From IMG/VR virus record IMGVR_UViG_3300045988_110279: 64,000 bases of DNA. One strand, 5' to 3'. This DNA comes from a virus. Shown here piece by piece: positions 5,933 to 57,989 of the stretch. Position 1 is the stretch's first letter, and each line of letters opens with the position of its first letter. The notes under the pieces are model-generated. The model did not search any database, was not told where the DNA came from, and was given only the letters and a program-made list of their open reading frames with translations. The translations under genes and the position numbers were made by a program.

Positions 5933-6283
5933 TTAGTTGAGAATTATTGGATATGCCTTGCGAATAACCACCGTAACCATGGCCGGGGGAGTGTCGCACA
6001 AGAAACGATCATTTCTGATAAAACGACCAATTCCCATATTCTGCCACAAAGTCCGGTTTACATCCTCGTATCGTAGGGTATTATACTTGGAAAGTTTGAT
6101 ATGCCAATCATAGATAAAGGAACCATCTTCCGGCATGGTGTAATCTGGCGCCCGCTTATAATTTCTCGTATGCTCTGCGGCTCTGCGTTCAAGGTCATTT
6201 GTCGTACCAATCTTGAGAATATAGCGCCCCTTTTTGTCGATATAATGTCCGACATATAGGAACTCTTTTCCCCTTGTCTGCAA
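5933..6283 (-). CDS. GIY-YIG family nuclease
   Basis: FLYVGHY...YILKIGTTNDLERRAAEH matches the GIY...YIG...R...H(E) motif order. Confidence 0.55.
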   Translation of the reverse strand: MQTRGKEFLYVGHYIDKKGRYILKIGTTNDLERRAAEHTRNYKRAPDYTMPEDGSFIYDWHIKLSKYNTLRYEDVNRTLWQNMGIGRFIRNDRFLCDTPPAMVTVVIRKAYPIILN

Positions 6284-6339
6284 ACTAACTATAACTTGCC
6301 TCTTTTCTGGTAGGGCCGGGGTAGGCCGACCCTACCCCG

Positions 6340-6657
6340 TTATTTCTTCGGCTTACGCTTTTGCACAAGCGTCAACTCGAAACTATCCCCACCAATAGAA
6401 AACGCAATCTGTCTTTCCTTGTTAGTAATAGACAAGTCAGCGATAGAGAATTGACTGTTTTTTTCCAAAAACTCTGCCAATTCCGCAATTATACCGCCTT
6501 TCGTGGCGTTTGGCTTGCGTTGCCGTGTAGTGAACTTATATGCGGTTGGCTGTTTGCGCGTTCCAGCATGGGCAAACTTTTGAGCGATTTTCGCCTTTTC
6601 TGGCGGTAAATCGTATTCAGTCTTTTTATCAGCCTCTACCGCCTTATCATAGGCCAA
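6340..6657 (-). CDS. hypothetical protein
   Basis: Track ORF, TAA stop. GC hairpins flank it at 6302-6338 and 6762-6795. Confidence 0.5.
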   Translation of the reverse strand: MAYDKAVEADKKTEYDLPPEKAKIAQKFAHAGTRKQPTAYKFTTRQRKPNATKGGIIAELAEFLEKNSQFSIADLSITNKERQIAFSIGGDSFELTLVQKRKPKK

Positions 6658-6795
6658 TAAATCTGCCTCCTCTTCCGGCGTTAATTGCAGGGCTTTATAC
6701 CTTGCAATCCGTTCAGCGTCACTAATGCGACTGGATATAATATCACCCCCATATTATAAGTTAGGGCGGGGATTTTCACCCCGCCCTATACGGGG

Positions 6796-7206
6796 TTACG
6801 CCATCTTAAAGAGGGACTTGCCCTTCTTCTCCGTGCAGACTACTCGACCATCGAGTTTCAACTGCCGCACAAGAGCGGCGACCTTCTGGTTAGAATAGGC
6901 CGTCAGATCAGGAATAGCCTTAAAAATTTCCGTGCAGGTCACGCCATCGGTATCGGCGTCCAGACCAGCCAGATACTCCATAATCTGCTCCTTAAAGTTT
7001 TCGTTCTCCTGCTGGGTGGGAGTCAGCTTCTTGTCACCGCTGGAGCTATTCTTCTTACGCAGAAGCTCCAGCTCATGGTCAATGACAGTAATGGCCACCT
7101 CGATGGTAGTGCCATACTTTACCTCGCCGTCAGTCAAGAGGGCCTTAATGTCCTCAAAGCGCTGGGCCTTGGTAATGCGGATTTTCTTCTCGTCCATAAT
7201 ATACAT
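6796..7206 (-). CDS. hypothetical protein (possible C-terminal winged-helix)
   Basis: Track ORF. C-terminus reads KVAALVRQLKLDGRV. Confidence 0.5.
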   Translation of the reverse strand: MYIMDEKKIRITKAQRFEDIKALLTDGEVKYGTTIEVAITVIDHELELLRKKNSSSGDKKLTPTQQENENFKEQIMEYLAGLDADTDGVTCTEIFKAIPDLTAYSNQKVAALVRQLKLDGRVVCTEKKGKSLFKMA

Positions 7207-7245
7207 CCTTTCTGGTTTTTAGGACTGTCCTTGTCCTTTGATTAT

Positions 7246-7446
7246 ATTGTACCACACTATTTGGTACTTGTCAAGAGGTTTTTCAAACTTTTTTCAAGAA
7301 CTTTTGCTCTTTACTTGTTTGCCCTCTCAACCTCCCTTATAGTGTAACACACTTTGGAAAGTTTGTCAAGCCCTTTTTATTTAATTTTCAAGGTGCATTG
7401 CCTTGTTTTCTGTACTTATTATAGCACATCTTCAAAGGCTTGTCAA
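7246..7446 (-). promoter_or_regulatory. three tandem leftward promoters (P1 7246-7274, P2 7341-7369, P3 7418-7446)
   Basis: P1 is TTGACA-17-TACAAT, P2 is TTGACA-17-TACACT, P3 is TTGACA-17-TATAAT. All are on the minus strand. A 15-codon leader ORF with an AGGGAGG RBS lies between P2 and P1. Confidence 0.55.
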
Positions 7447-7553
7447 GAGATTCTTGAAAGATTTTTGAGAAATTCGCTGTCGCTGTCTGCCGTTCGTCTC
7501 TCTCACTTTCTGAATGTATTTTACCACAAGCAAAAGCAGATTGCAAGCGTCAA

Positions 7554-7632
7554 ATTGCACAAAAAATCTGAATTTTGGGAGAAAGTTTTTGTGCAGAATT
7601 TTACACAAAACGGAGCTGAAATTTTTGTGCAA
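7554..7632. promoter_or_regulatory. operator-like inverted repeats TTGCACAA / TTGTGCAG / TTGTGCAA
   Basis: Three half-sites of the same family. Confidence 0.5.
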
Positions 7633-7651
7633 CATTTACAAAGAAAAACTC

Positions 7652-7718
7652 GGGTCGCGCCGTTCCTGCGCGACCCGCTCAAATTTTGTATAAAAAAAGA
7701 AGGGCCGAAGCCCTTCTT
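7652..7718 (-). terminator. tandem intrinsic terminators
   Basis: gggtcgcgc...gcgcgaccc and aagaagggc-cgaa-gcccttctt, each followed by a T-run on the minus strand. Confidence 0.6.
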
Positions 7719-7900
7719 AACAGAAAATACAGTTATCCAGAAAATCAAACAGGTGTTCATCCTCAATGGGAACATTTACCAGCATATTTCCATCTTCGTC
7801 AATATCATCATGACACCATCCCATACGCTCAATAATTTGAATTGCCATATAAACGGCATCTGCGCACAGAGAAGAGGTATATACAGTTTTTGTTACCATT
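7717..7900 (-). CDS. small hypothetical protein (60 aa)
   Basis: Internal start MVTKT with a GAGGAGG RBS, inside track ORF 7717..8052. Confidence 0.4.
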
Positions 7901-8092
7901 TTATTCCTCCTCGAAATCATCAACTCCATATTGTCTCTGATATTCGTCACAGTCGAACCATGGCTCACCCAAAGAGCAACAAAGTGATTCCGTGTCAAAA
8001 TCTGGGCAGATAGTATCATAGATTTGTTCTGGGTCCATGCCTTCCTCGGCATAATGCGGGCAACTCCACCGCATACAATGAACTTGAGACAT
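7901..8092 (-). CDS. small acidic Cys-rich protein
   Basis: Track ORF of 63 aa. Confidence 0.4.
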   Translation of the reverse strand: MSQVHCMRWSCPHYAEEGMDPEQIYDTICPDFDTESLCCSLGEPWFDCDEYQRQYGVDDFEEE

Positions 8093-8119
8093 ATTATTTC
8101 CTTTCTGTCGGGCGGGGCT

Positions 8120-8911
8120 TTAAGCCCCTACCCGGATAGTTGGAATTGAACGCATACTTGCGGAAAGTTGACGCTGAAAATCTGTCATAGGTGGAAACTC
8201 TCTCTTATTCTCATACAGGGCCTTTCTCATGGGCTTATGCTGACGCATACAATACCACATGATTTCCGCCTCAATGAGAACATCCTCAAGCCCCGTATGA
8301 CTTTCTTCAAAATCGGTATTGCCAGAAATAAACCGCCACACGATTTCCGCAGTCTTACGAGGAACGCCATTGGCCTGGACATATCCGTTTTCCTGACAGA
8401 ATTTCTTATAAGTGGGCATATTGCAGATAACATCCTGTGTCATCTTCATAATGTCCCAGATTTCCACACTATCAAACGGGAACCAGTAGCGGAACTTGGA
8501 GCAAGTGACCCATCGTTGAGTGACCCGCAGAGCGTTATCGTCAAACCGGGCATTATAAGCAGCTACCTCTTTAATCCCGTATCGCTCGATGGTATCAAGC
8601 ATAGCCTGCCGGATTTCATAAGTTGTAGCCATCTTACGAGTGCCGGCCCGCAATTCTTCGACATAGCGGGGGATTTTCCAATTATAATAGGCCGTCCGCA
8701 TGAGATCCCGCTCATCGTTGAAAATGTCCCTATTTACAAAACTGGCAGTTTCATAAATATTGCCCTTGGTATCCACTACCGCCCATCCGCAATCATAGAC
8801 AAGAACGCAACTCATATCCATGCGGGCTTTGCCGTTTTCGTCAGTTTCAGTCAGTGTGTTAGCAGTTTCAGTATCAACCACCAAAACATAGTGTCTACGC
8901 TTATCAATCAT
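8120..8911 (-). CDS. DEDDh 3'-5' exonuclease (DnaQ/RNase T-like)
   Basis: Exo I motif VVDTETAN, Exo II motif AYNARFDDNAL and Exo III motif HTGLEDVLIEAEI. Confidence 0.75.
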   Translation of the reverse strand: MIDKRRHYVLVVDTETANTLTETDENGKARMDMSCVLVYDCGWAVVDTKGNIYETASFVNRDIFNDERDLMRTAYYNWKIPRYVEELRAGTRKMATTYEIRQAMLDTIERYGIKEVAAYNARFDDNALRVTQRWVTCSKFRYWFPFDSVEIWDIMKMTQDVICNMPTYKKFCQENGYVQANGVPRKTAEIVWRFISGNTDFEESHTGLEDVLIEAEIMWYCMRQHKPMRKALYENKREFPPMTDFQRQLSASMRSIPTIRVGA

Positions 8912-8943
8912 AATCTTTGACTTCCTTTCCTCTTGTTGAGTTT

Positions 8944-8972
8944 ATTATAGCACATATCATGCTTGATGTCAA
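8944..8972 (-). promoter_or_regulatory. promoter TTGACA-17-TATAAT
   Basis: Exact consensus on the minus strand upstream of the exonuclease gene. Confidence 0.65.
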
Positions 8973-9137
8973 GAGGAAAAGGAAATTTTTATTGCGATTT
9001 ACTGCAAGCTACTGGGCATTAGAACGGCCTATTCTAACGGCGTTCACTCGACTTACGACACAATATAAATTTACTTCCTTTACTTTCTAAGAGTTCGCGA
9101 CCTCTTGATTTCTTGGCCTTCCCCTCTTGACAAATAT

Positions 9138-9166
9138 ATAATACCATACTTTCGGGATAATTACAA
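9138..9166 (-). promoter_or_regulatory. promoter TTGTAA-17-TATTAT
   Basis: Cassette promoter. A short leader ORF with an AAAGGAAG RBS follows it. Confidence 0.4.
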
Positions 9167-9175
9167 GATGGCAAA

Positions 9176-9207
9176 TTGCACAAAATTTGCAAGCCAAAAT
9201 TGTGCAA
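9176..9207. promoter_or_regulatory. inverted repeat TTGCACAA-N16-TTGTGCAA
   Basis: Best-formed copy of the operator family. Confidence 0.55.
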
Positions 9208-9228
9208 CATCGACAAAAACAAAAACTC

Positions 9229-9300
9229 GGCTCGCCGCGTGCGCCAGCGAGCCGCCCAAACGATATTAAAGAGTAAAAATAAGAGGGCCGAAGCCCTCTT
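9229..9300 (-). terminator. tandem intrinsic terminators
   Basis: ggctcgc...gcgagcc and aagagggc-cgaa-gccctctt with T-runs on the minus strand. Confidence 0.6.
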
Positions 9301-9487
9301 AATATCCAAGATATTCTTTATTAATAATCTCGTCAAGCCAATAGCTCAAATCTTCAAGCGAAATATCGTCATCAATTTCATTGTCGGCCATAACCTGATC
9401 AATTTGACCAATGAGAATGGACGCATTTTTCAATACTTGTCGCTCTTCCTCGCTGAGGATAAGCCTATTAACCTTTCTAATCTTCAT
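9299..9487 (-). CDS. small acidic hypothetical protein
   Basis: Track ORF of 62 aa ending at the terminator. Confidence 0.5.
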   Translation of the reverse strand: MKIRKVNRLILSEEERQVLKNASILIGQIDQVMADNEIDDDISLEDLSYWLDEIINKEYLGY

Positions 9488-9527
9488 TTACAAAACTTCC
9501 TTTCTTATTTTAAGATTGACTGGTGGA

Positions 9528-9992
9528 TTACTCTACCAGTCGCCATAAGGCCGTAGGTAAATCTTCATGCGGTTCGATTGTTTCTCCTAAATGCCAACCA
9601 TCCCGCACACTTTTATTATCGTCAATCAAAATAAAATTGCTAACCCCCGGCTCGAAGTATTTTCGCACACAGTTTGCTTTTGTTGTGCCATATTCCACAA
9701 GGTGGACTTTATGTGCGGGGAAGTTGTATTTTGCAAGCCAAGTGCGCTTTGCATCACGGACAGCGGTTTTATATGAGTTAGAACTGTCTTTTGCAAGCCA
9801 ACTGATAACCCGAATTTCCCAGCCCTGCTCAATAAGTTTATTGAGAACGGTATTCAATTCTTCCATATCGCAAAGAGGTTTAGCGACTGTATATGGATAG
9901 GGGTTTTCATTCATTAAATCTTTCAGCCATCCATCTACGCCGTACAGGTCAGCGATTGTTCCATCCATATCAAAGCAGAGCATCTTTTTCAT
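9528..9992 (-). CDS. HAD-superfamily 5'-nucleotidase-like phosphatase
   Basis: N-terminal CFDMDGTIADL (the DxDGT motif I). Confidence 0.55.
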   Translation of the reverse strand: MKKMLCFDMDGTIADLYGVDGWLKDLMNENPYPYTVAKPLCDMEELNTVLNKLIEQGWEIRVISWLAKDSSNSYKTAVRDAKRTWLAKYNFPAHKVHLVEYGTTKANCVRKYFEPGVSNFILIDDNKSVRDGWHLGETIEPHEDLPTALWRLVE

Positions 9993-10024
9993 TTTGATTT
10001 ACTTCCTTTCTTTAGGTTGATTAA

Positions 10025-10053
10025 AGTATATCAGATTTCGGGATAGAAAACAA
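10025..10053 (-). promoter_or_regulatory. promoter TTGTTT-17-TATACT
   Basis: Cassette promoter upstream of gene 9528..9992. Confidence 0.4.
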
Positions 10054-10061
10054 GAGGCAAA

Positions 10062-10093
10062 CTGCACAAAATTTCGGCTGGAAAATTGTGCAA
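10062..10093. promoter_or_regulatory. inverted repeat CTGCACAA...TTGTGCAA
   Basis: Operator family copy. Confidence 0.5.
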
Positions 10094-10114
10094 CTTCTAC
10101 AAAAGAGAAAATTC

Positions 10115-10193
10115 GGCGCGCCACGCACGTTAGCGCGCCGCCGAGAAGCCTATTCAAAAAATGGGATAAAAAAGAGGGCCGAAGCCCTCTTTT
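10115..10193 (-). terminator. tandem intrinsic terminators
   Basis: ggcgcgc...gcgcgcc and aagagggc-cgaa-gccctctt. Confidence 0.6.
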
Positions 10194-10653
10194 ATCTTTC
10201 ACATATATTTGCAAGAAATCTTGCAGAAAGTTTAACCATGTCATGGACAGATTCTTCGTTATTGCTATTTTTATAGCAAATAAAACCAACCTGGTCGCCA
10301 TTCACAAGAATTGGTGTAATAAACATACTTTCCCATTTTGTCGCCGAACTGCGAATATCAATCCAGTCATCGGGAACTCTTGTAATTCCAAAGGAACGCG
10401 GCCCGCATAAAATTCCATCATTGTCAAAAATAGCCGCGGCGATTCCGTTAGATGAAAGGGCATTTTGCATTTGTTTAGCGTAAGAGGAAAATTCTCCCAT
10501 TATAGAATATTTCTTAAAAACTACGCCGCCATCTTCTTCAAGAAAAATCTCTAATGGGTCGCCTTCTCTAATATGAAGGCTTCTACGGATTTCCTTTGGA
10601 ATTACTATCCGGCCCAAATCATCAATACGGCGCACAATTCCAGTAGCTTTCAT
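10192..10653 (-). CDS. AbrB/SpoVT-family transcriptional regulator (N-terminal swapped-hairpin domain plus C-terminal GAF-like domain)
   Basis: MKATGIVRRIDDLGRIVIPKEIRRSLHIREGDPLEIF matches the AbrB/SpoVT N-domain. Confidence 0.75.
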   Translation of the reverse strand: MKATGIVRRIDDLGRIVIPKEIRRSLHIREGDPLEIFLEEDGGVVFKKYSIMGEFSSYAKQMQNALSSNGIAAAIFDNDGILCGPRSFGITRVPDDWIDIRSSATKWESMFITPILVNGDQVGFICYKNSNNEESVHDMVKLSARFLANICER

Positions 10654-10705
10654 TTTTATCTGCGGGAGTGCAAGATTTATAGTCTTGCACTCCCTTCCTC
10701 CATTC

Positions 10706-11098
10706 TTAATCCAGTTCTTTCAACATCCGTTCGAGGTCAGCTTTAGTACCACCCAACTCAAGCGTAAGAATAATTTCCGTTACGGCATTTTTCTCCCAGT
10801 CGCTAACTTCCCGCATGGCCTTTTTCTTCTCGTTCTCCATAGCGGGGTAAATACAATCCTGGCAAGCCTCTACCAGCCGGTCATTATATCTGCGGAAACT
10901 CATCCCCTTGTTTTTAACCTCCGAAAGAAGTTCGTCGTTAAGGGCTTTTACCGCCTGCTTAACTTTCTCCTGCATGATTTTACACTCTGTCTCATAAGCG
11001 GAAAAGGTTTCATGGACAGCCTGCCTCTTGATTTCAGCCTTTACTCCAACTTCCTTTTCAATATACTCCCGAACAACCTTACTAACACGCATTTCCAA
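10706..11098 (-). CDS. hypothetical protein
   Basis: Track ORF. Confidence 0.5.
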   Translation of the reverse strand: MEMRVSKVVREYIEKEVGVKAEIKRQAVHETFSAYETECKIMQEKVKQAVKALNDELLSEVKNKGMSFRRYNDRLVEACQDCIYPAMENEKKKAMREVSDWEKNAVTEIILTLELGGTKADLERMLKELD

Positions 11099-11144
11099 AA
11101 CTTCCTTTCTTAATTTTAATTTTTATTTATCGGGGTCGCCCCTT

Positions 11145-11180
11145 CCATGGTCTTATTGTACCATAGTTGGGGCGATTTGT
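11145..11180 (-). promoter_or_regulatory. promoter TTGACA-17-TACAAT
   Basis: Minus strand reads ggggTTGACAaatcgccccaactatggTACAAT. Confidence 0.6.
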
Positions 11181-11187
11181 CAACCCC

Positions 11188-11340
11188 TTACATCAAAGTT
11201 TTTGCAAGATACGCAAACATTAAAATCTCCGCCGCAAACATGATTTCAAGTCCTATGCAATCTCTTTCAATAGCGGCTACAAATTGCCATACCAGACATA
11301 GAACAAAAGCAATCAGAATTATCATGGTAAAAGTTGTCAT
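11188..11340 (-). CDS. small membrane protein (~50 aa)
   Basis: Internal start MTTFTMIILIAF with a GGGGTGAG RBS. Confidence 0.4.
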   Translation of the reverse strand: MTTFTMIILIAFVLCLVWQFVAAIERDCIGLEIMFAAEILMFAYLAKTLM

Positions 11341-11344
11341 ATAC

Positions 11345-11602
11345 TCACCCCGCAAAGGAAACTTCCGCAAAGTTGATATTGAAACGCTCCCATTCACTTT
11401 CCATACCTAACATCATATCATGGAAAAGGTCATCACGATTTTCATATCCATCTTCTTCCAGAATAGCCTCCCATTCTCCATCGTCATATTGATTTTCCAG
11501 ATAATCCAAAGCAGACTTGCGGGCGGCGATGGTATTAGACGCTACGCAGATAGGTTTATCGTCGTATCCGTCCGTGACCAAAATCATTTTCTTTTCTTCC
11601 AT
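11345..11602 (-). CDS. acidic hypothetical protein
   Basis: Start MEEKKM with RBS AAAGGAAAG, TGA stop. Confidence 0.45.
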   Translation of the reverse strand: MEEKKMILVTDGYDDKPICVASNTIAARKSALDYLENQYDDGEWEAILEEDGYENRDDLFHDMMLGMESEWERFNINFAEVSFAG

Positions 11603-11655
11603 GATTTTTTCTTTCCTTTCTTTCGAGGTGTTTCTGTCTCCCTCTTTCTGATAAT

Positions 11656-11684
11656 AATATACCACAGGCAAAGCAGAAAGTCAA
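11656..11684 (-). promoter_or_regulatory. promoter TTGACT-17-TATATT
   Basis: Cassette promoter. Confidence 0.45.
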
Positions 11685-11713
11685 GCGATTTTAGGAAAAA
11701 ATCTTTCGTCAGA

Positions 11714-11745
11714 TTGCACAACAATTCGAGCCTAAAATTGTGCAA
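11714..11745. promoter_or_regulatory. inverted repeat ATTGCACAA...TTGTGCAA
   Basis: Operator family copy. Confidence 0.5.
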
Positions 11746-11767
11746 ATTGCCTCTTGATAAAAAATTC

Positions 11768-11835
11768 CGGCCGCGCCTGTGGTGCACGGCCGGGCGAACA
11801 AATAAAAAAAAAGAACCTCCTGAATTTCAGGAGGT
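11768..11835 (-). terminator. tandem intrinsic terminators
   Basis: cggccg...cggccg and acctcctg-aattt-caggaggt. Confidence 0.55.
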
Positions 11836-11875
11836 CATTAATTTCTGCATACCAACAACTCCCTTTCTTTTGAGA

Positions 11876-12106
11876 AGTCAATCGGCATTTTCAACAATCT
11901 TTAATCCGTTTGCTTGGATAATTTTCATAGATTCTTCAAGCGAGGAATCAACCGATCCGCAGTCAATACAGATATATTTTCTACCATCTTTTACCATAGT
12001 AGTGAAATAGTATTCCTAACCGGAAGTAAGTCCCATTTGTTCACGCAAACGAATCGGAATCATAATTCTACCACTTGAATCTAATTTGCGAGAGAAAGTA
12101 GTTTCT
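11876..12106 (-). CDS. AbrB/MazE-like swapped-hairpin DNA-binding protein with one in-frame TAG
   Basis: MQETTFSRKLDSSGRIMIPIRLREQMGLTSG(TAG)EYYF... The frame is complete only if TAG is sense. No obvious SD. Confidence 0.4.
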
Positions 12107-12175
12107 TGCATTTTGATAAATAAATTCTAGTGACCTAGGCTCGTGCGAAAAACGACTCCATCACGGGAATCGCCG

Positions 12176-12313
12176 ATTTAGAACAATCGGAAGGAACATT
12201 TACCACTCGCAAGGCATTTTCTGGCAGAACTGAGACATAGGACAATTTTACAAGAATCCTAGTTCAAACAGAACTCCAAAATAACCGCAAGCGCTTTCAG
12301 CACTTCTAAGGTC
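12176..12313 (-). CDS. small Cys-rich protein (45 aa, one TAG)
   Basis: RBS AAAGGAG 8 nt before the ATG. Confidence 0.3.
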
Positions 12314-12516
12314 ATTAGAAAAACTCCTTTCTTTATTTTTCTATAATTATTATAATATATTTTTTTGAAAAAATCAATAGGGCCGGCATTACGCCAGCCC
12401 TAATCTCTGCAACCAAACCAGATGGTATTTACCAATGTGAAGTAGAACTGTGCCATATCCCTTATCCGTCCAGACAGTGGAGCCGATAGGATATGTGTGC
12501 GGTAAACGCTCAATAC

Positions 12517-12732
12517 TCACTTTAGTTCCACCTCCTCGAAAGCTCCAATTTTTAGCAGATAATTATATAAGGCTCTATCTTGCTTGTCACCGGTATTAAA
12601 ATCAAGTGTACGAACACAGCCGGTAACATTGGAATTGAGAGGATGACCCAAACACCAACCAGCCATATTACAAATTGTGTTTCCAAACTCCGCAGATTTT
12701 TCTACACTTTCAAATTTAATAACAGCAATCAT
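12517..12732 (-). CDS. hypothetical protein
   Basis: Track ORF of 71 aa. Confidence 0.45.
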   Translation of the reverse strand: MIAVIKFESVEKSAEFGNTICNMAGWCLGHPLNSNVTGCVRTLDFNTGDKQDRALYNYLLKIGAFEEVELK

Positions 12733-12755
12733 ATTTATTCCTCCTTTTTATCATG

Positions 12756-12786
12756 GGGAGTGGAGATTTATGGCCTCCACTCCCGC
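12756..12786. promoter_or_regulatory. intergenic hairpin gggagtggag...ctccactccc
   Basis: Perfect 10-bp stem between two minus-strand genes, immediately 5' of an RBS. Confidence 0.5.
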
Positions 12787-12794
12787 AAGTTTTC

Positions 12795-13034
12795 TTAACC
12801 ATCTACATAAATGATTAAATTGTTATCTCTTGCCTCAATGCCGGTTACCTGAAGTCCCAGAACCCATTCCTTAGATACCTCGATTACGTCTCCTCCCAGA
12901 GTTATTCTACCATCAGGTAATTCGTGGTAATGAGCTTGGGTATTCTTATTGATAATTTCGAATCCCTCCCCGTCAAAGAACATAGTATCTTCTGCAAGCG
13001 GAGAAAGTAACCAAGCAACCATATCTAAAGTCAT
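12795..13034 (-). CDS. hypothetical protein (79 aa)
   Basis: Start MTLDMVAW with RBS AAAGGAAG. Confidence 0.45.
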   Translation of the reverse strand: MTLDMVAWLLSPLAEDTMFFDGEGFEIINKNTQAHYHELPDGRITLGGDVIEVSKEWVLGLQVTGIEARDNNLIIYVDG

Positions 13035-13086
13035 TTTTTTACTTCCTTTCAAATTCTTTTTGTGGCCTGTCCCTTTGGACAAGTAT

Positions 13087-13115
13087 ATAATAACACATGG
13101 CAAAAGGAATGTCAA
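13087..13115 (-). promoter_or_regulatory. promoter TTGACA-17-TATTAT
   Basis: Cassette promoter. Confidence 0.55.
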
Positions 13116-13143
13116 GTAATTTCGGGAGAAAAACTTTCGTCGA

Positions 13144-13180
13144 ATTGCACAGACTTTCGGTCATATAATTGTTGAAATTG
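13144..13180. promoter_or_regulatory. degenerate operator inverted repeat ATTGCACAG...ATTGTTGAAATTG
   Basis: Family member. Confidence 0.4.
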
Positions 13181-13198
13181 CCGAATAAATAAAAATTC

Positions 13199-13287
13199 GG
13201 GCCGCGGCGCACGCTGGCGGCCCGGCGAAAAGTCAATATGGAAAAGTGCATAAAAATGACTGGCAATCTTTGTGTAGATTGCCAGTC
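13199..13287 (-). terminator. tandem intrinsic terminators
   Basis: gggccgc...gcggccc and gactggcaatc-tttgtgtag-attgccagtc, both with T-runs on the minus strand. Confidence 0.6.
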
Positions 13288-13300
13288 AAGTATTATTCCT

Positions 13301-13534
13301 TTACAGCTCCATGGTTTCCATGAGATAGCCCGTGCCCATCGGCACCTCCCGCAGATTGCTGGGACTTATACGCAACTTATATTTCCTATTGATTTTATTC
13401 GCCGCACTTGTCTTATCTCTTGCTTGGACAATTACTGGTATATGGAGTTTATTCAGAGTGGGCTTATTAAGACTGAAATATCCCATCTCTCTGCGCTTGC
13501 GGCCCATGGCGTCGATATAAGTCCCTCTATACAT
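13301..13534 (-). CDS. small basic protein
   Basis: Track ORF with AGGAGG RBS. Confidence 0.5.
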   Translation of the reverse strand: MYRGTYIDAMGRKRREMGYFSLNKPTLNKLHIPVIVQARDKTSAANKINRKYKLRISPSNLREVPMGTGYLMETMEL

Positions 13535-13547
13535 TTTTTTCCTCCTA

Positions 13548-13700
13548 TTATTTAGTCATGAGAACGAACATATTATATTCGCTGTGCTGTGGGTTTGGCT
13601 CACAGTTATCCGCCACTATATCAGCCCAACTAAGAACTGCCCAGAGTAGGAGAGCGGCACAAATGCCGCCTCCTATCCGCTTAATAATTCTCATTTCCAT
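13548..13700 (-). CDS. small membrane protein (50 aa)
   Basis: MEMRIIKRIGGGICAALLLWAVL with a GGAGG RBS. Confidence 0.35.
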   Translation of the reverse strand: MEMRIIKRIGGGICAALLLWAVLSWADIVADNCEPNPQHSEYNMFVLMTK

Positions 13701-13993
13701 TTCTTTGCCTCCTGTTCTTTAACCCATTCAGTACCGATTGTATCTCCGACCATAGCAATCTTATATTCGTCTTCGCTTGCAATTCTGGTATGCAGATTGC
13801 TATTGATAAACTTTCTATTGATATAAGCCCAGTGTGGCATATAGGCCACTCGCATGGCATTAAAAGCATCCAGGTCTAAGATGATGCCGTCCTCTACCTC
13901 TGCGGAACACACATTCATCTTATACCGCAAAAGTTTAATAAATTCACGCTTTCTAAAAGTAGGCCCAACGAACCACTTAATATAATTGTTCAT
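13691..13993 (-). CDS. hypothetical protein
   Basis: Track ORF with RBS GGGGAGAAAGG. Confidence 0.5.
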   Translation of the reverse strand: MNNYIKWFVGPTFRKREFIKLLRYKMNVCSAEVEDGIILDLDAFNAMRVAYMPHWAYINRKFINSNLHTRIASEDEYKIAMVGDTIGTEWVKEQEAKKWK

Positions 13994-14038
13994 AGTCTTT
14001 TATCCTTTCTCCCCGTATAGCCGTTAGGTCAGCTTCTT

Positions 14039-15085: not shown

Positions 15086-15113
15086 AAGAGAGAAGAACTC
15101 ACTTCTTCTCTCC
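15086..15113 (-). terminator. intrinsic terminator
   Basis: gagagaag-aactcac-ttcttctc plus a T-run on the minus strand. Confidence 0.55.
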
Positions 15114-15130
15114 GCATTTACAATATAATC

Positions 15131-15370
15131 TTATCCATCGTCGGTTGCTTCAAAATTAAAAATCAAATTATATCCATCCTCAGTTTCTATCATTTCATAT
15201 CCTTTTAAGATATATCCATCCTCTAGTTTAATATTAGTCGCATCAGATCTCCACATTGTAGGAATATACTCTAGCCTTGGATAACGATCGTTCTCCTTTC
15301 CGCAAGCAGTTAACAACAATACGATTAATATTATGTTAATTATAAAGCTGATACTTCTTCCCAATTTTAT
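15131..15370 (-). CDS. lipoprotein (signal peptide with LTAC lipobox)
   Basis: TTG start after a GGAGG RBS gives LIKLGRSISFIINIILIVLLLTACG... It overlaps the 3' end of the PTH2 gene. Confidence 0.45.
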   Translation of the reverse strand: MKLGRSISFIINIILIVLLLTACGKENDRYPRLEYIPTMWRSDATNIKLEDGYILKGYEMIETEDGYNLIFNFEATDDG

Positions 15371-15773
15371 CAATTTCTTCCGCCTCCATTGGCCTAAATC
15401 CAATACACGTCAAAGTCCCTTCCGGGCCTTCACGCTCTAACTCCGTCCTACAAGCATCATAAATAAGCCAGTAGTCTTTATTCTCTTCCCATCCTAATTC
15501 TTTAGCCATTGCAACAGCTTTTAGCAAATCATTCTTATTCTTCGCTCTACAAACTACTTTGGTCTCCGCTTCCGCTATCCAATTATGGAATAAGTCTCTA
15601 TCGAGGCTTATTCCTATATGATACATAAGACCGTCTCTTTCTTTAACAACTTCTTTACTTCCCCAATATAACTTTTCCAAAAGAAAAGCAATAGAAGCAT
15701 GGGAAACTTGTGCGGCAAGTTTCCCTGGAGACATATTTAAGTCTCGCCTCGCAATAATTAATTGCTTGAACAT
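15336..15773 (-). CDS. peptidyl-tRNA hydrolase, PTH2 family
   Basis: LIIARRDLNMSPGKLAAQVSHAS... with C-terminal ...TLTCIGFRP...KKYQLYN, resembling PTH2 (KMVLVVRxDLKMGKGKxAAQCSHA). Confidence 0.65.
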   Translation of the reverse strand: MFKQLIIARRDLNMSPGKLAAQVSHASIAFLLEKLYWGSKEVVKERDGLMYHIGISLDRDLFHNWIAEAETKVVCRAKNKNDLLKAVAMAKELGWEENKDYWLIYDACRTELEREGPEGTLTCIGFRPMEAEEIDKIGKKYQLYN

Positions 15774-16525
15774 TTTTCCAAAACCTCCAAGAAAATTCTA
15801 AAATTGCGGGAATTGCGGTTTGGAATCGCAAAATAGATATTTGGAATATTATAATTGCGGGCTGCGCTTACGAGCAAGGTGGCGACCGTTGATGGATCTT
15901 GCATAAAAACACCACAGCCCCAGGCTCCCGCGATTAAATTTTCCACTCCCTTAGCCTCGGCAATCCGATACATAAAATTAATTCTCTCTTCCATTATCCT
16001 ATTGTTTAGAGAAAGAGGAACTTGCTGATAAGTATGTGCTGTTCTATAATTAGGAGAAGCACAAGTAATTACATCAGCTAATTTTCTACCATTGTCTTTT
16101 TCAAAGACTACATCAGGAGTATAGATAGCTCTATCAAGATATAGGGCTCGATTTAGTCTCTGTCTATTCCATGCGTAATAAGTATCATCAAAAGCAAGAA
16201 GAATAGGATAAAGGTTGCTTTCGTGACACAATGCCTCTTCTTGTGCAGAGCTGCCTCCAAGGAAGTAACCACCTGGATGTTTATAGCTTGCATAATTTAA
16301 GATTGCGGTCTTGCTCCGATCGGTTAAACCAAATAGACAGGATACGCTATCTTGGTCTTTAAGATAAAAGGTATTATGGTAGGTTTCTTGCGGTTTTAGC
16401 GGAAAAGGAAGATTGGGGCCAAAAATTTCAGAGTTTATAATTGCGCGATCTGTATCTTCCTTGAGTCTCACTTTAATGTCTGCGTAATGCGATTGCGCGT
16501 GTTGTTTGAGCTCTTCTCGTTTCAT
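15758..16525 (-). CDS. macrodomain protein, bacterial PARG-like (DUF2263/TIGR02452-like)
   Basis: HPGGYFLGGSSAQEEALC resembles the PARG GGG-x6-8-QEE signature. Confidence 0.5.
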   Translation of the reverse strand: MKREELKQHAQSHYADIKVRLKEDTDRAIINSEIFGPNLPFPLKPQETYHNTFYLKDQDSVSCLFGLTDRSKTAILNYASYKHPGGYFLGGSSAQEEALCHESNLYPILLAFDDTYYAWNRQRLNRALYLDRAIYTPDVVFEKDNGRKLADVITCASPNYRTAHTYQQVPLSLNNRIMEERINFMYRIAEAKGVENLIAGAWGCGVFMQDPSTVATLLVSAARNYNIPNIYFAIPNRNSRNFRIFLEVLEKCSSN

Positions 16526-16559
16526 TTGCAGTTTCCTTTCTTCCGTGCGGTTGGGCAGA

Positions 16560-16750: not shown

Positions 16751-17098
16751 TTACTCATATTTACATCCATTCATTCTACAGTCTATTGTACATTGCCCTG
16801 AAGCCCCTTCACAAGGAATAGCATCAGGATAGTATTCGAAATAAGACGAGGTTAATAGAACTTCATACCCAAGTTCCCGCAGTATTCTCTCTGCGACATA
16901 CCTATCTCTTAACTTAATCCATTCTTCTCTGTTTACTTTTGTTTCTCTATCTATTTGATTTGAGGTGTCTACATCCACAGTTATAGTTCCATCACTAATA
17001 GAGATGGCCTCATCCAACCTTCTAAACCATTTTTTAAAGGGATTTTGAATATGCAATATATCTTCAGCATATTTGTCAAAATCTTCCGAAAATTTCAT
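16751..17098 (-). CDS. hypothetical protein
   Basis: Internal start MKFSEDFDKY of track ORF 16751..17191, placed so as not to overlap FolD. Confidence 0.4.
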   Translation of the reverse strand: MKFSEDFDKYAEDILHIQNPFKKWFRRLDEAISISDGTITVDVDTSNQIDRETKVNREEWIKLRDRYVAERILRELGYEVLLTSSYFEYYPDAIPCEGASGQCTIDCRMNGCKYE

Positions 17099-17121
17099 TA
17101 TCTTTGTGCCTGTTTCGCTAA

Positions 17122-17885
17122 CTATAAACAATTTTTCATCAACCCCAATCTTGTTAATAGACCTACTCCTCCGGGGACAGGAGTTGACCATACCTTATTT
17201 TTACTTGCAATTTCATCAATTTCTACAAAGTCTCCAAGAATAATTCCTGCTTCATTTCTACGAATACCAACATCTATAACAATAGCATTAGGACAGGCTT
17301 CTCTTGTTAAGCTAAATTTTCCTACCGCAGAGATAATTAAATCCGCTTGTCTTGTTAAATAGAGTTTTGTGTTTATATCTGTTTTACTGTGACACATTGA
17401 TACGGTCATATTTCTATCTAGAAGAGCTTTAGCCATTGGCTTTCCTACAATATCGCTTCTTCCCAAAACAACAGCAGATTTACCTTCGTAGTTAAAGCCA
17501 CATTTATCCAAATAATCTATAATTCCTCTTACTGTTGCTGGAGTAATATTACTCATTGGATTTAATCCATCTGCATCTTTAGAAACAGGTATTTGATTAT
17601 AATTGAAATCAATCCCGTCTGCTATTGGCATTTGGACTATTACAGCATCCCAATCTTTCGCATGGTCTAAAAATAACTTTAATTCTACTGAACTATTAGC
17701 TCTAAATACTTCTGCTTTCCAACCAAGAGCATTAAAGTCTTTTATTTTATTACGAATATAAATTTGATTTGCGGGATCCTAGGCCGTCGCGTCGATAATC
17801 ATGAGAGAAGGAATTGCAGATCTATCAACCAGCAATTTCTCTATCTCTTGTTTAAAATACTCTTTTATATTAATCTATTTCGTCA
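17122..17885 (-). CDS. folD: bifunctional methylenetetrahydrofolate dehydrogenase/cyclohydrolase FolD; two in-frame TAG codons
   Basis: The C-terminal 169 aa (track ORF) match FolD: VVLGRSDIVGKPMA...VIDVGI...TPVPGGVG. The N-terminus DATA(TAG)DPANQIYIRNK and VIVQMPIADGID is recovered only by reading TAG as sense. Confidence 0.7.
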
Positions 17886-18280
17886 TTCTCTGGTTCTAGC
17901 CTCCATGGATCATCAGTATAATAATCTATCATATCATAAAAAGATATACCCTACTCGCTGTCTACTTCTAACACCTAATGAGGTAAGCACTATAATTCGT
18001 ACTAAAAATCTTTATTTATATGATGTGTTGTATAAATATGGACAGCATAAGGTCTCCCGTCTGTAATTCCCTATATATCCCACATATTAATAATGTTCTA
18101 TTGAAATGTCTCTTGGGCATACTATGGAGATACAGCGATACATACAATTAAAATATTAAAATAATACTATGCGTTTTTTGGTAGTGCATTGTAAGGTTCA
18201 TCGAAGAACATTTCTTTATATTCCTCCTACTATTTTCTATTTATATTATAGCATTATAATTTTAATTAATCAAATAAGAT

Positions 18281-18309
18281 TTGACAATCTAGTATTTTTT
18301 TGTTATTAT
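18281..18309 (+). promoter_or_regulatory. rightward promoter TTGACA-17-TATTAT
   Basis: Upstream of the first plus-strand late-module gene. Confidence 0.55.
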
Positions 18310-18333
18310 ATGAGTATAAAAGGAGATGACAGT

Positions 18334-19380
18334 ATGATAAAATTAGATTATACTATTGAGTCTCCAGAAGAGCGAAAAGCGCTTGTCGAAAAAATAATCG
18401 AAGAAAATCCGGATCTTACTCCGAGTTATTTAGAAATATTAGCAGATTATTTAGTTCTATGTATGGAAAAGCAAGAGAAGAAAGAAAAGAATATATTAAC
18501 AGATAATAGAATGGCTACTGTTAATAAAAGAGAATGTTCTTTCGAAGGGCTTGCGTCATAGATGGAAAATGGCGAGGATGGCATTTATGGTTTAATGTCA
18601 GAAAATAAAAATGTTATATTTTAGCCAAAGATTTCTATTACACAGAAAGATTTAGATACTATACCATGTTTAAAATAGTTGAGAGAAACCATTAATGTCT
18701 GGGAGGGCGCTTTAAAACGCGCTGCTGGGACAAAATAGGCATATATGATGAAAAAAGCATTAATAGAGATGCGAAAAGATTAGTATATCATTAAGCAAGC
18801 ATATTAGAAACCTATTATACCATGTAAATTAACGAGATCCGTAAGAACTCATATTCCTCTTGATGATTAGAGTTATCTTAATGGACAGGAGGTAGTGGTA
18901 AAGGGTATTTCGCTAATGGACGCCAATGTTGTTTCTGCTATTTTATGCAATTATTCAAAATTAAAAGAGGATAGTTATGATTAGTTTGAGGGAGATACAT
19001 GGTATTTAATTCAATCATTTGAAGAAATATGTGATAAAGCTCTCAAAGACTTTCCAATCTATTTACGAATTGTTGAACTCAAAATTGATAAAAAGTAGAA
19101 TAACGAAATATAGGAAATATTAAAAAATGAGTTTGGTAAAACATATAGCGTTGAATATATTTCTAGCCTATGGAGAAATAAGATTCCTAAACTCATTGCG
19201 GAAGAGGCTTTAGAAGATTTTTTACGTTGGTAGTATAAACAAAAAGGATACCCAATGAAAAAATGTTCTAAGTGTGGGCAATTAAAGCCAGCCCATAATC
19301 AATTCTTTTCAAAGAATAAGACAAGTAAGGATAATTTGTATAGTATCTGTAAGCGCTGTCGCAATAAGAAAAGAGGTTGA
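18334..19380 (+). CDS. hypothetical protein with C-terminal CxxC...CxxC zinc ribbon; ~13 TAG codons
   Basis: RBS AAAGGAGA then ATG. In frame with track ORF 18169..18561, ending at TGA 19378. Confidence 0.5.
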
Positions 19381-20559: not shown

Positions 20560-22305
20560 ATGGCATTAAAAGATTTATTAAACCTTTCAAATAATAATAA
20601 GAAAATTGGCCTTTCCGAAGAAAGAGTTCGTGCGATAATTCCAGCAGCAAGATAGTATATAGCTTTTTGGAGAGAATATCCAGATATGTTTATTGACTTT
20701 TTGTAGACCGGCGGAGACGATACAAGAAAAAAAGAAATTAATTTTTATTTTTATTAGAGAGTTTTCTTGCGGGCGGCTATGAGATATAAGTATGTATACA
20801 TGGTATTTCCTCGTGCCTATTCTAAGTCATTCTTATCAGTAACGGTGCTTATGTGTAGATGTATATTATATCCTGGATGTAAGCTATTCATTACTTCTGG
20901 TGGAAAAGAACAGGCAGCAGGTATAGCAAAAGAAAAAGTCTAGGAAATTTGTAATGCGATTCCCGCGCTTTAGAGAGAGATTGATTGGCGAAGAGGTAAG
21001 ACTTAGGAAGGAAAAGATTATTGTAAGTATATCTTCAAAAATGGATCTTATTTTGACAACGTTGCTGCTAGAGAATCTTCTCGTGGTAAGCGTAGACATG
21101 GAGGATTAATTGAGGAGTGCGTTGGTGTAGATGGGGATATTTTAAATGAAGTTTTAATCCCTCTAATGAACGTTGATAGAAGATGTTTAGATGGATCTGT
21201 TCATGAAGAAGAAACACTCAATAAATCCTAGATTTATGTTACTACTGCGGGGTGGAAAAACACATTCCCATATAATAAGTTGATTACTTTGCTAGTGCGC
21301 ATGATACTAGAACCCGAAAAGAGTATTGTAATGGGCGGAACATGGAGAATTCCTGTGCTAGTGGGATTGCAATCCCGCAACTTTGTATAGGAGTTAAAAC
21401 AAGATGGTACATTTAATGAAGCATCATTTGATAGAGAGTATGAATCTAAATGGAGTGGCACCGTAGAAGATGCCTTCTTTAATGGTGATGCTTTTGATAG
21501 AAGTAGAAAATTGCTTTAGCCTGAATATGAATCTTCCGGGCGCTCTTCTGCTCAAGCATATTATGTTCTTTCTGTTGATGTAGGAAGAAAGAAATGTCAA
21601 TCTGTTGTATGTGTATTTAAAGTAACCCCTCAGTCTCAAGGACCAGCGATTAAGTCTCTTGTTAATATATATACTATGGATGATGAACATTTTGAAGATT
21701 AGGCAATTAAGCTAAAAAGATTATATTATGATTATAAAGCTAAAATTATTGTTATTGACGGTAATGGACTTGGTGCTGGATTGATGGATTATATGGTTAA
21801 ACCACAAATAGTGCCAGATACCAATGAAGTTTTTCCTGATTTTGGTGTAGCTAATGACGAAGATGGAGAATACAAACGATTTAGAACAGATAATACAGAA
21901 TATGATGCTATTTATGAAATTAAGGCAAATGCGCCAATTAATACCGAAGCCCATAGCAATGTTTAGACATAGTTGCGGGCTGGAAAGTTAAGATTTTTAA
22001 TCGACGAAAAAGTTGCTAGAAATAAATTACTTGGTACCAAGAAAGGTCAAGCCATGAAACCAGAAGAGCGGGCAGAATATTTAAAACCATTCACTTTAAC
22101 TTCTATATTAAGAGAAGAAATGCTAAATTTGCGAGAAGAAAATGAGGGTGTAAATATTATTTTAAAACAGGCAAATAAGTCTGTGCCCAAAGATAAATTC
22201 TCTGCGCTTGAATATGGATTATATTATATTAAATAGGAAGAAGATAGTAAACGCAAGCGTAAAAGTAGAAGATTTTCAGATTTTATGTTTATGAGTGAGG
22301 TGTAA
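20560..22305 (+). CDS. terminase large subunit
   Basis: 581-aa frame (track fragments 21781.., 21973..) with ATPase-like and nuclease-like regions (...VIDGNGLGAGLMDYMV...). Many TAG codons. Confidence 0.6.
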
Positions 22306-46400: not shown

Positions 46401-47402
46401 GTAAAATATAATGGAACTGTAAAAGCAACCAATGCAGAAGTTTCAGGGACTATTTACGCCTCTTCTGGTAAAATTGGAGGAACGAAAACAGGATCTAATG
46501 GTTGGACTATTGAAACCAATAGACTATATAGCGGCTCTGGCTCAACGAGAGTTGAATTAAATAGCCAATCTCCAACCAATACTTCTACTCCTACTAATAA
46601 TAATGATTTTGCTATTTGGGCAGGAAGTGCTACAGCATCAAGTGCTAAATTTTCTGTTTCTAAAGGCGGATTAATTACTGCTAAATAGGGAAATATTGGA
46701 GGTTGGATTCTTTCTTCTAATAAGTTAACTAGTGATAATTATAGAACTGGAATAGCGAGCTCTGGTACTTATCGTTTTTGGGCAGGAGCTAGTTCTAGCA
46801 GTACGGCAGATAGACCAGTTTTCTCTGGATCTTCTTACTTTTATGTTACTAGCTCTGGAGAAATGTAGTGTAAAAATGCAACGATTAATGGTTCAATTTA
46901 TGCAGATAATGGTGAGATTGGTGGCTGGATCATCAGTTCAAATAGAATTTCTGGAGGAAGAACTACACTATATTCAAATGGTAGAATTGTGTGTGATGAT
47001 TTTGAATCAGACAATGTAGATATTAGCGGAGATATTAATGCAACTACTTTGACTTGTGATAATGGTGAGATTGGTGGCTGGATCATCAGTGAAAGCGGAT
47101 TGGAAAATGGTGCCACAAGACTATATAATGGTTTAGTTTAGACGAATCAAGTAGATATATTTTTAGATAATCGTTGGAGAAATAAGCTGGGAACTTTAGG
47201 ATATGTTGAAGGAGAAGATGATTATGGTCCTACTGAGAATATTGGTATTCTTACTGAAAGAGGAGATCATAGTATTATTTTAAAATCTTCTAGAAACATA
47301 GCTCTACGAACAGAAGGTGGCGGAATATGGATAACTGGAGGAAGTCTAAATGTAAATGTTTCTAAAGAAAATTAGCACGGTATCTATGCCCAATTTGCGT
47401 AA
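43488..47402 (+). CDS. large tail tip/baseplate protein (1304 aa) with repeated GEIGGWIIS motifs
   Basis: In frame with track ORFs 44841.., 45375.. and 46326... Contains an exact 34-bp internal repeat at about 46905 and 47066. Confidence 0.5.
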
Positions 47403-57173: not shown

Positions 57174-57813
57174 AGTTTAATTCAATAGCTTTTAATTTAT
57201 CTATTGAATCAGCTTCGAATATCTAAGTTTTATATTCTTGCATTAAATGATATTTGGGATATACCACATTTAAAATAGCTAAACTTAGAGCGGATAATTG
57301 CTCTAAACTCCATGGCACACATTCTTCGTGTCGAGCGTGCCACTCAAGCGTAGGATTTTCTACTTCAGCCGCGAGAGCGACTTGATATTGATTGAGATTT
57401 AAGCTAATCTCAGACTGGTCCTCCTACGTAATTCCATATTCTTTTCCATCAACCCAAGTTAGTGGGTGGGTAGCAAGATACTCTGCGAATAGTTTCTTGT
57501 TTTCCTCTTGTTTGTCATACTTTGCCTAATCTAAATCAGAAGTGAATGTTCCATCTTCTTGATTATATATTGAATAATTAGGAGTAACATCTGATGGAAT
57601 TGTTTCTATCTCTAATACTTTTACAGCATTAGATTGATTTAATACATCGGCTTTAATTAGAGTATAATGTGTATCTCCATTTGAGCCGATAACCCCAGTT
57701 CCCTCTTCTTCCTCGCAGGCAACGACAATACCATTTGAGGATTGCAGTTTAATGTAACGTGCTTCTGAAAGAATATCAACTACTACATTCTCTCTATTTA
57801 ATAGAATATACAT
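57151..57813 (-). CDS. hypothetical protein (220 aa)
   Basis: Track ORF 57526..57813 extended through TAGs. Its stop overlaps the start of the membrane-protein gene. Confidence 0.4.
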
Positions 57814-57989
57814 TACTTTATTTCAACTCCTTTAAATAATGAACGAAAATAATTGTCCATATCTTGAATTATATAAAAACAAGTTCCTTTAGAAATATGT
57901 GCCCTCCAACCTTGATAGGATTTCTAAATTTCATCTGTTGAAATTTTACCCTCTAACCATAGCGCTTGCATTTTCTTTAACTTTCTGCG

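Follow-up and report, generated by a model that had tools for sequence, protein, structure and literature searches.

What does a bacteriophage gain from PARG, the enzyme poly(ADP-ribose) glycohydrolase, and from what does the enzyme remove ADP-ribose? These questions are raised by an open reading frame (ORF) in a 64,000-nucleotide stretch of viral DNA (IMG/VR record IMGVR_UViG_3300045988_110279; hereafter the window), which represents 44% of a genome of ~146 kb. The ORF lies on the minus strand (15758..16525) and encodes a protein of 255 amino acids, with an ATG start codon, a TAA stop codon and no in-frame TAG. An earlier note, made from the sequence alone, had described it as a phage-encoded, PARG-like macrodomain protein that might reverse host ADP-ribosylation; the ORF is as described there, and the peptide quoted corresponds to its residues 84–100. 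The protein is a full-length, intact bacterial-type PARG, a member of a known and structurally characterised family, and it probably erases RNA-linked (or protein-linked) ADP-ribose, keeping translation running during infection.

That the protein belongs to the bacterial-type PARG family (PF10021/TIGR02452) is virtually certain, the similarity being far beyond chance. It matches the Pfam family PF10021 ('PARG_cat_microb', DUF2263; the microbial-type PARG catalytic domain) with E=6.6e-26 and 91.9 bits against a family cut-off of 23.5 bits, and NCBIfam TIGR02452 with E=2.2e-50 and 171.7 bits against a cut-off of 50 bits, the latter match spanning residues 17–245 (229 of 255). Sequence searches of the PDB return PARGs exclusively, including those of Deinococcus radiodurans (E~3e-24) and Thermomonospora curvata (E~1e-21). 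No match was obtained to the PADLOC models at E<=0.01 and no family for the protein was found in PHROGs v4.

The predicted fold agrees with this assignment. An AlphaFold2 model built from an alignment of 62 sequences (A1) has a mean pLDDT (predicted local distance difference test) of 94.1 and a pTM (predicted template modelling score) of 0.91. When compared with the PDB using Foldseek, the model matches T. curvata PARG best (3sig/3sih/3sij; template modelling (TM) score 0.81–0.84, E=1.4e-17), followed by D. radiodurans PARG (the 5zd entries; TM 0.73–0.79), whilst non-PARG macrodomains and eukaryotic PARG catalytic domains reach a TM of at most 0.57. The modelled protein has a macrodomain core with a PARG-specific N-terminal helical extension and is superposable on the solved bacterial PARGs. 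A fold outside the macrodomain class would have spoken against the original description; instead, the top matches are two solved bacterial PARGs, and the PARG-like identity holds by profile hidden Markov models and by fold alike.

The active site motifs are in place, with one departure from expectation. The catalytic loop PGGYFLGGSSAQEEALC (residues 84–100; 16226..16276, minus strand), identified from the translation and the alignments, contains Q95, E96 and E97 and aligns with PGGGFLGGAQAQEE of D. radiodurans PARG. Residues N77, G85, G91, Q95, E96, E97, G203, G205, V206 and F207 are invariant in A1 and span the catalytic and diphosphate loops. The GGG-x6-8-QEE signature reported in the earlier note is correct as to the QEE and the spacing (x7) but not as to the GGG triplet, which is replaced here by G85-G86-Y87 (GGY-x7-QEE). 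Amongst the 120 closest PARG homologues, the motif could be located in 112, only 14 of which have glycine in third place, this residue otherwise being M, F, Y, L, K or Q, amongst others. Judged from these sequences, the third glycine is no constant of the family in this clade. Close homologues keep both the QEE and a diphosphate loop of the form G-A-[WFY]-G-x-G-V-F. The diphosphate-binding loop of the phage protein, GAWGCGVF (residues 200–207; 15905..15928, minus strand), a loop present in 112 of the 120 homologues, is letter-for-letter that of D. radiodurans PARG.

A further difference amongst the bacterial enzymes concerns the ribose cap. In T. curvata PARG this is, according to the literature, R268, the arginine restricting the enzyme to exo-glycohydrolase activity. 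In a profile alignment with the wild-type chain of D. radiodurans PARG, the corresponding residue T267 is matched by N241 of the phage protein (codon 15803..15805, minus strand), with a two-residue insertion adjacent to it (the wild-type chain reads ...DNHPQhpTLGAF); the alignment to the T267K chain stops short of this residue. In A1, N241 shows a conservation of at least 90%. The phage active site may, on this alignment, be open and D. radiodurans-like, with no arginine cap. We consider it very likely that the ORF encodes an active enzyme.

Two cellular enzymes are the natural points of comparison. The D. radiodurans protein DRB0099 (PDB 5ZDA-5ZDG) shares with the phage PARG its family, its size (~250 amino acids), the catalytic loop pattern PGG-x-FLGG-x3-QEE, the identical diphosphate loop, a Foldseek TM of ~0.78 and, on the alignment above, a small polar residue at the ribose-cap position (T267 and N241, respectively). 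The two are ~27–29% identical, with GGY rather than GGG in the phage enzyme. T. curvata PARG (3SIG) and Streptomyces coelicolor SCO0909 provide the best structural match, with the same macrodomain core and N-terminal helical extension, at 23–24% identity. Unlike the phage PARG, these are cellular rather than viral proteins, and the T. curvata enzyme has an arginine ribose cap (exo-only) where the phage protein has asparagine at the aligned position.

Codon comparison with relatives at 66–99.6% identity gives a ratio of non-synonymous to synonymous change (dN/dS) of 0.07–0.24, showing that the gene is under purifying selection. This bears on the idea that PARG is simply a passenger or auxiliary metabolic gene acquired from Clostridia, clearing spontaneous ADP-ribose adducts, for example, and only weakly selected. 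Homologues are indeed abundant in the likely host class, at 35–45% identity, and a metabolic gene, FolD, is found nearby. Against this, selection on the gene is strong, phage lineages with as little as 45% identity keep it in the same position and large phages of unrelated groups (Lak, phage G and huge phages) have it independently, making a passenger gene improbable. In one relative (L012; IMG/VR UViG_3300045988_068993, 6001–6855) the PARG frame extends to 285 amino acids, with 94% identity and a dN/dS of 0.6. A frameshift or an indel close to the 3' end would account for this, arising from assembly error or in a decaying copy.

Bacterial-type PARGs were long without a clear bacterial substrate until work from 2025 demonstrated that they remove ADP-ribose from RNA and shield cells against a toxin directed at RNA. 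The bacterial PARGs SCO0909 and DRB0099 reverse the 2'-OH ADP-ribosylation of RNA by RhsP2, the only hydrolase type tested that does so, the RNA bond being the C1''-O-2' bond also found in poly(ADP-ribose) (PAR); they also remove the 5'-phosphate ADP-ribose made by Tpt1/KptA, and they protect Escherichia coli from RhsP2 (PMC11833690). The operon encoding DRB0099 includes ligase and polynucleotide kinase genes (PMC11833690). PARG-type enzymes are reported to be specific for ADP-ribose linked to ribose 2'-OH and 5'-phosphate groups (PMC11833690; PMC12879935). Of the example targets suggested in the earlier note, DarT-type DNA modification is the least likely.

A role for the phage PARG as a DarG mimic, removing DarT-type ADP-ribose from bases in phage DNA, does have a functional precedent. 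Orphan antitoxin-like hydrolases that counter DarTG are known in phages (PMC11825919; PMC11481870; PMC13309987), and the T4-like NADAR and the DarG-like proteins of ICP1 and the chimalliviruses are phage erasers of host-made nucleic-acid ADP-ribosylation. These known anti-DarTG proteins are, however, NADARs or DarG/TARG1-type macrodomains specific for base N-glycosidic bonds, whereas the phage PARG belongs to the PARG clade. Published assays assign the reversal of thymidine-linked ADP-ribose to DarG/TARG1-type macrodomains and that of guanine-linked ADP-ribose to NADARs, not to PARGs (PMC11833690; PMC12879935). Neither PADLOC, with no match, nor the PDB sequence and fold matches place the protein in the DarG/TARG1/ALC1-like clade, other macrodomains giving TM scores of no more than 0.57 compared to 0.78–0.84 for PARGs. 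The chance that the phage enzyme acts in this way is very slight indeed.

The genes surrounding PARG provide a second line of evidence. Overlapping its 3' end is a gene encoding a PTH2-type peptidyl-tRNA hydrolase of 145 amino acids (15336..15773, minus strand; PF01981, E=1.2e-22), which also matches archaeal Pth2 structures with E-values down to 7e-15. The start of PTH2 overlaps the stop of PARG by 16 nt, with a GGAGG site within the PARG 3' end, and the same 16-nt overlap is kept in relatives at 64–92% identity (L001 and L002 included). On this operon anatomy, PARG is translationally coupled to PTH2. In this phage TAG is a sense codon (see below), and whilst late genes contain 8–13 in-frame TAG codons each, PARG and PTH2 contain none, so that both should be translatable before the code switch. 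This fits with their being made early in infection, a timing judged from the codons. A protein that is phage-encoded and, on the same grounds, expressible early has the properties looked for in an anti-defence protein; the anti-defence role itself is one that we infer.

To see whether the association extends beyond the window, we surveyed 90 viral PARG loci, which collapse to 29 lineages at 70% PARG identity. PTH2 is found in five of these, always within 1 kb of PARG, and FolD in six, likewise, with the order FolD-x-PARG-PTH2 maintained throughout the SPbeta-like group. Thirteen of the 29 lineages have an RNA or tRNA gene no more than 1 kb from PARG, and the count falls with distance, to six at 1–3.5 kb and four at more than 3.5 kb. 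In addition to PTH2, the genes within 1 kb include a PF09414 RNA ligase (three lineages, never further away), a fusion of Pnkp-like kinase, phosphoesterase and Rnl1 (Pnkp-Rnl1; one lineage), Thg1, an RlaP-like nucleotidyltransferase, YqeY, an RNase T-like protein and Metallophos (calcineurin-like phosphoesterase). Cassettes such as Pnkp/Rnl1-PARG (L005), PARG-homing endonuclease-Thg1 (L074) and Metallophos followed, at some remove, by YqeY-PARG-RNase T-RNA ligase (L070) illustrate the pattern, PARG standing beside an RNA ligase and/or a polynucleotide kinase-phosphatase in L005, L070, L079/L080 and L087. In this, relatives of the phage PARG resemble those of DRB0099, which also adjoin RNA ligase and polynucleotide kinase genes; the window PARG differs in being partnered by PTH2 and FolD rather than by ligase and kinase genes (the DRB0100-DRB0099-DRB0098 type of cassette).

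PARG homologues are also widespread in gut Clostridia, with more than 545 genome matches. In a set of 37 bacterial lineages from gut Lachnospiraceae, Oscillospiraceae and Erysipelotrichaceae (35–45% identity), the commonest neighbours are Metallophos (five), Thg1 (three), Tpt1/KptA (two) and RNA ligase (two). Taken together, the neighbourhoods of PARG in the window and in its relatives point to RNA or tRNA rather than to DNA.

It is because published PARG biochemistry and PARG gene neighbourhoods can be combined in this way that we favour an enzyme acting on RNA. PARG would bind the terminal ADP-ribose, and the QEE glutamates would hydrolyse the bond at ribose C1'', either an O-glycosidic ribose(1''->2')ribose link or, on a phosphate, an ester of ADP-ribose. 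In this way it could remove ADP-ribose placed by host ADP-ribosyltransferases (ARTs) on RNA of the translation apparatus, candidate marks being RhsP2-type 2'-OH adducts on tRNA or structured RNA and Tpt1/KptA-type 5'-phosphate caps. PTH2 has been interpreted, in large phages, as one part of the rescue of tRNAs and ribosomes (PMC7824862); here it would make tRNAs held up as peptidyl-tRNA available again, and the two enzymes together might form a translation-protecting pair acting in counter-defence or repair. The catalytic activity, the substrate and the benefit to the phage are matters that we infer, and with differing assurance: some role in conflict or repair is rather likely, whilst the explanation as a whole, an eraser of RNA ADP-ribose working with PTH2, is held tentatively, as is, if anything a shade more cautiously, the proposal that RNA is the main substrate.

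Several observations weigh against it. The GGG triplet of the catalytic loop is changed to GGY. The literature searched contained no phage PARG that had been characterised. Metallophos is ambiguous in function, and without it and RNase T the count of lineages with an RNA gene within 1 kb falls to 11 of 29; moreover, the control in the survey consists of distance bins of unequal size, with no genome-wide background. Genes for tRNA lie near PARG in only two of the 29 viral lineages (plus phage G), and for that reason we did not use them as evidence of recurrent linkage. No RNA ligase or kinase gene adjoins PARG in the window, where its neighbours are FolD, PTH2 and the 115-amino-acid and lipoprotein-like ORFs described below, and here the link to RNA repair therefore comes through PTH2 alone. 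Finally, no system producing 2'-O- or 5'-phosphate-ADP-ribosyl RNA is known to have been described as anti-phage. RhsP2 and related proteins are toxins used between bacteria, and CmdT acts on adenine N6.

Proteins are the most obvious other substrate. PARG could serve as a protein de-(poly/mono)ADP-ribosylase, restoring the function of host or phage proteins after attack by a host PARP-like or ART defence or by the toxin of a toxin-antitoxin system. De-ADP-ribosylation of protein is the canonical activity of the family, as seen for the enzymes of T. curvata, D. radiodurans, Herpetosiphon aurantiacus and Clostridioides difficile (CD160) (PMC8120803; PMC5966428), and PARP and PARG are known as working pairs from Clostridia (PMC5966428), the class to which the host probably belongs. 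The intact PARG active site motifs would suit this activity as well. No PARP or ART gene was found as a recurrent neighbour of PARG in the 29 viral or the 37 bacterial lineages, however. PARG-clade enzymes are also inefficient at removing protein-proximal ADP-ribose. Bacterial PARPs are, in addition, rare (28 sequences from 27 species; PMC5966428) when set against the PARG matches in gut Clostridia. On this evidence, protein as the substrate in place of RNA is unlikely.

The modification to be erased could also be of the phage's own making, PARG limiting or timing the action of an ART encoded elsewhere in the ~146 kb genome. Phage T4 encodes the ARTs Alt, ModA and ModB. Writers and erasers are frequently paired in ADP-ribosylation systems, ARTs and macrodomains often occur together in large phages (PMC9503650) and the window shows less than half of this genome. 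Yet a Pfam scan of the other window genes, covering those outside the 22–56 kb late block, found no ART, PARP, Sir2 or TIR domain, and no ART was found within 10 kb of PARG, on either side, on related contigs. The only lead within the window, a C3larvin-like match in the 115-amino-acid ORF (E=0.087), was rejected by structure prediction. A role in erasing the phage's own marks is, like that of a passenger, given little chance.

Small molecules are a third alternative. The earlier note had mentioned the processing of ADP-ribose-derived signals, and PARG might hydrolyse immune messengers containing a 1''-2' or 1''-3' bond, such as the glycocyclic ADP-ribose (gcADPR) of Thoeris, or other ADP-ribose derivatives. 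The ribose–ribose bond of gcADPR would be chemically like that of PAR, the PARG gene is free of TAG and compatible with early expression, and NAD-related genes (SIR2, CinA and an AAA_28 NadR-like kinase) occur sporadically as neighbours elsewhere, in one lineage each. The recurrent neighbours, in contrast, concern RNA repair instead of NAD or signalling, the PARG pocket accepts extended rather than cyclised ADP-ribose and no PARG acting on gcADPR was found in the literature searched. We regard signal processing as highly improbable.

Returning to RNA as the target, a more specific possibility can be envisaged in which PARG and PTH2 form a dedicated module directed against an undescribed immune system of gut Firmicutes, one whose ART disables tRNA or structured RNA by 2'-O- or 5'-phosphate ADP-ribosylation. 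PARG would then strip the adduct from the RNA and PTH2 would free tRNAs trapped as peptidyl-tRNA. This is distinctly speculative, and we think it rather less likely than action on protein. If true, phage PARGs would be the first enzymes known to counter a defence based on RNA ADP-ribosylation, and would offer a handle for finding the host system. The presence of PARG under purifying selection in many large gut phages, repeatedly beside tRNA or RNA-repair genes, suggests that RNA ADP-ribosylation is a battlefield between phages and gut Firmicutes also. The coupling of PARG to PTH2 and the RNA-repair neighbourhoods make for a testable hypothesis, and a protein of 255 amino acids is easily expressed. 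Should the idea prove wrong, PARG would be one more annotated macrodomain hydrolase in a phage.

PARG and PTH2 belong to a leftward unit of six genes that diverges from the adjoining structural operon. In order, these are a 113-amino-acid ORF, FolD, a 115-amino-acid ORF, PARG, PTH2 and a small lipoprotein-like ORF, followed by a terminator-like hairpin. The divergent intergenic region contains a cluster of candidate sigma-70-like promoters (18245..18340, minus strand), recognised by consensus matches only. The first ORF of the unit (17870..18211, minus strand) contains eight in-frame TAG codons and is conserved in six lineages. It is followed by a gene for a FolD-like methylene-tetrahydrofolate dehydrogenase/cyclohydrolase (17098..17886, minus strand; PF02882, E=2.6e-38; PF00763, E=6.9e-9). 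The Pfam matches were obtained with a translation in which TAG is read as glutamine, the gene being complete only if its in-frame TAG is sense, even though PARG and PTH2 of the same operon lack TAG. FolD occupies the same position in relatives and stands at the head of the operon in six PARG lineages.

Between FolD and PARG lies the 115-amino-acid ORF (16751..17098, minus strand), which has 25 homologues, all in this phage group. The protein is helical; its WIKLRDRYVAERILRELGYEVL helix is invariant, and four cysteines near the C-terminus form the motif C-x6-C-x3-C-x4-5-C. An AlphaFold2 model made from 19 homologues has a pLDDT of 73. No match was found in Pfam, PHROGs or PADLOC, nor any fold match by Foldseek at E<=0.001. 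The weak resemblance to the ART toxin C3larvin mentioned above would have suggested a writer/eraser pair with PARG, but the catalytic arginine is unaligned, the protein is too short and the helical model has no fold match, and we rejected this reading. A Shine–Dalgarno-like AAGGA (16534..16538, minus strand), read from the sequence, lies 9–13 nt upstream of the PARG start codon. The last gene of the unit encodes a small lipoprotein-like protein with an LLTAC lipobox (15131..15403, minus strand; start codon uncertain) that is conserved in two lineages, with no family match found in Pfam, PADLOC or PHROGs. The hairpin that ends the unit (15087..15113, minus strand) is visible in the sequence as an 11 bp stem and a run of T.

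The element carrying this unit is a TAG-recoded, SPbeta-like siphovirus of ~146 kb. With the standard code there are almost no long plus-strand ORFs between 18 and 56 kb; with TAG as a sense codon, a continuous late operon appears (18160-56669, plus strand), with ORFs as long as 2,908 amino acids (34710-43436) and 1,304 amino acids (43488-47402). Most leftward genes between 5 and 16.5 kb contain no in-frame TAG, although recoding is also seen in scattered minus-strand genes. No suppressor tRNA was found within the window. A 581-amino-acid protein (20560-22305) is a YonF-type large terminase whose relatives are found in Brevibacillus phage Sundance, Lactococcus phage phiL47, SPbeta and big Clostridioides phages, all large siphoviruses of Firmicutes, and the Pfam families YonB, YonD and YonG are present in relatives of the phage. 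A PARG with 100% identity is encoded on a 146,360-bp IMG/VR contig (L015; IMGVR_UViG_3300045988_084596). These features, together with a diversity-generating retroelement, support the view that the gene is phage-encoded. Copies of PARG with 90–91% identity are found on ~148 kb contigs binned with Oscillospiraceae and Eubacterium metagenome-assembled genomes, and the host is probably an uncultured member of the gut Clostridia.

The retroelement occupies 57813-61843 on the minus strand and comprises a reverse transcriptase (57813-58529/58691; RVT_1, E=1e-10) and two copies of a 103-nt repeat. The template copy is at ~59338-59440; the variable copy (60061-60163) is situated in the target gene, of the Big_3/DUF6273 type (60047-61843), at its 3' end. 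All mismatches between the two copies of the repeat fall at A in the template, mostly in AAC codons. Elsewhere in the window, GC content is 0.40–0.43 at 6000-14000 compared to 0.30–0.35 in the remainder. The TAG-free minus-strand genes of this block include those for AbrB/SpoVT-like regulators (10192-10653 and 11878-12111), for a protein with a T5orf172 domain (5933-6283) and for one matching phrog_20187 (8120-8911).

How widespread are PARGs in phages? Macrodomains are well documented in these viruses and have been reported in ~1% of siphoviruses, PARG-type proteins not being singled out (PMC9503650). Only 20 of 50,697 GenBank phage records contain a PARG homologue, the carriers being the Lak megaphages, Bacillus phage G (gp114), two huge phages and one faecal contig, and a DNA-level search of the phage collection with the 14–18 kb region gave no match. 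In IMG/VR, homologues are found on at least 278 contigs, mostly of 90–280 kb. By a rough long-ORF test, PARG loci apparently occur in TAG-recoded, TGA-recoded and standard-code phages, and since they appear across all three code types we dropped the notion of a specific link between PARG and stop-codon recoding. One phage that looks locally to use the standard code (L017) has, within a tRNA cluster 5 kb downstream of PARG, a TAG suppressor tRNA (11525-11599) whose anticodon is CTA and which ARAGORN labels tRNA-Pyl.

The proteins of phage G, the Prevotella Lak megaphages, LR756502 and LR756511 are of the PF10021 type and 28–40% identical to the window PARG, but are encoded by jumbo phages or megaphages of 0.5 Mb rather than by a ~146 kb SPbeta-like siphovirus. 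In phage G (L090, 60154-72963) the protein is annotated only as 'gp114'. Its gene is located downstream of tRNA genes, and at a distance of a few kb are those encoding a second macrodomain protein (gp122; Appr-1-p processing), thymidylate synthase and dihydrofolate reductase, the last two of which may be seen as an echo of the linkage of PARG to a folate gene in the window.

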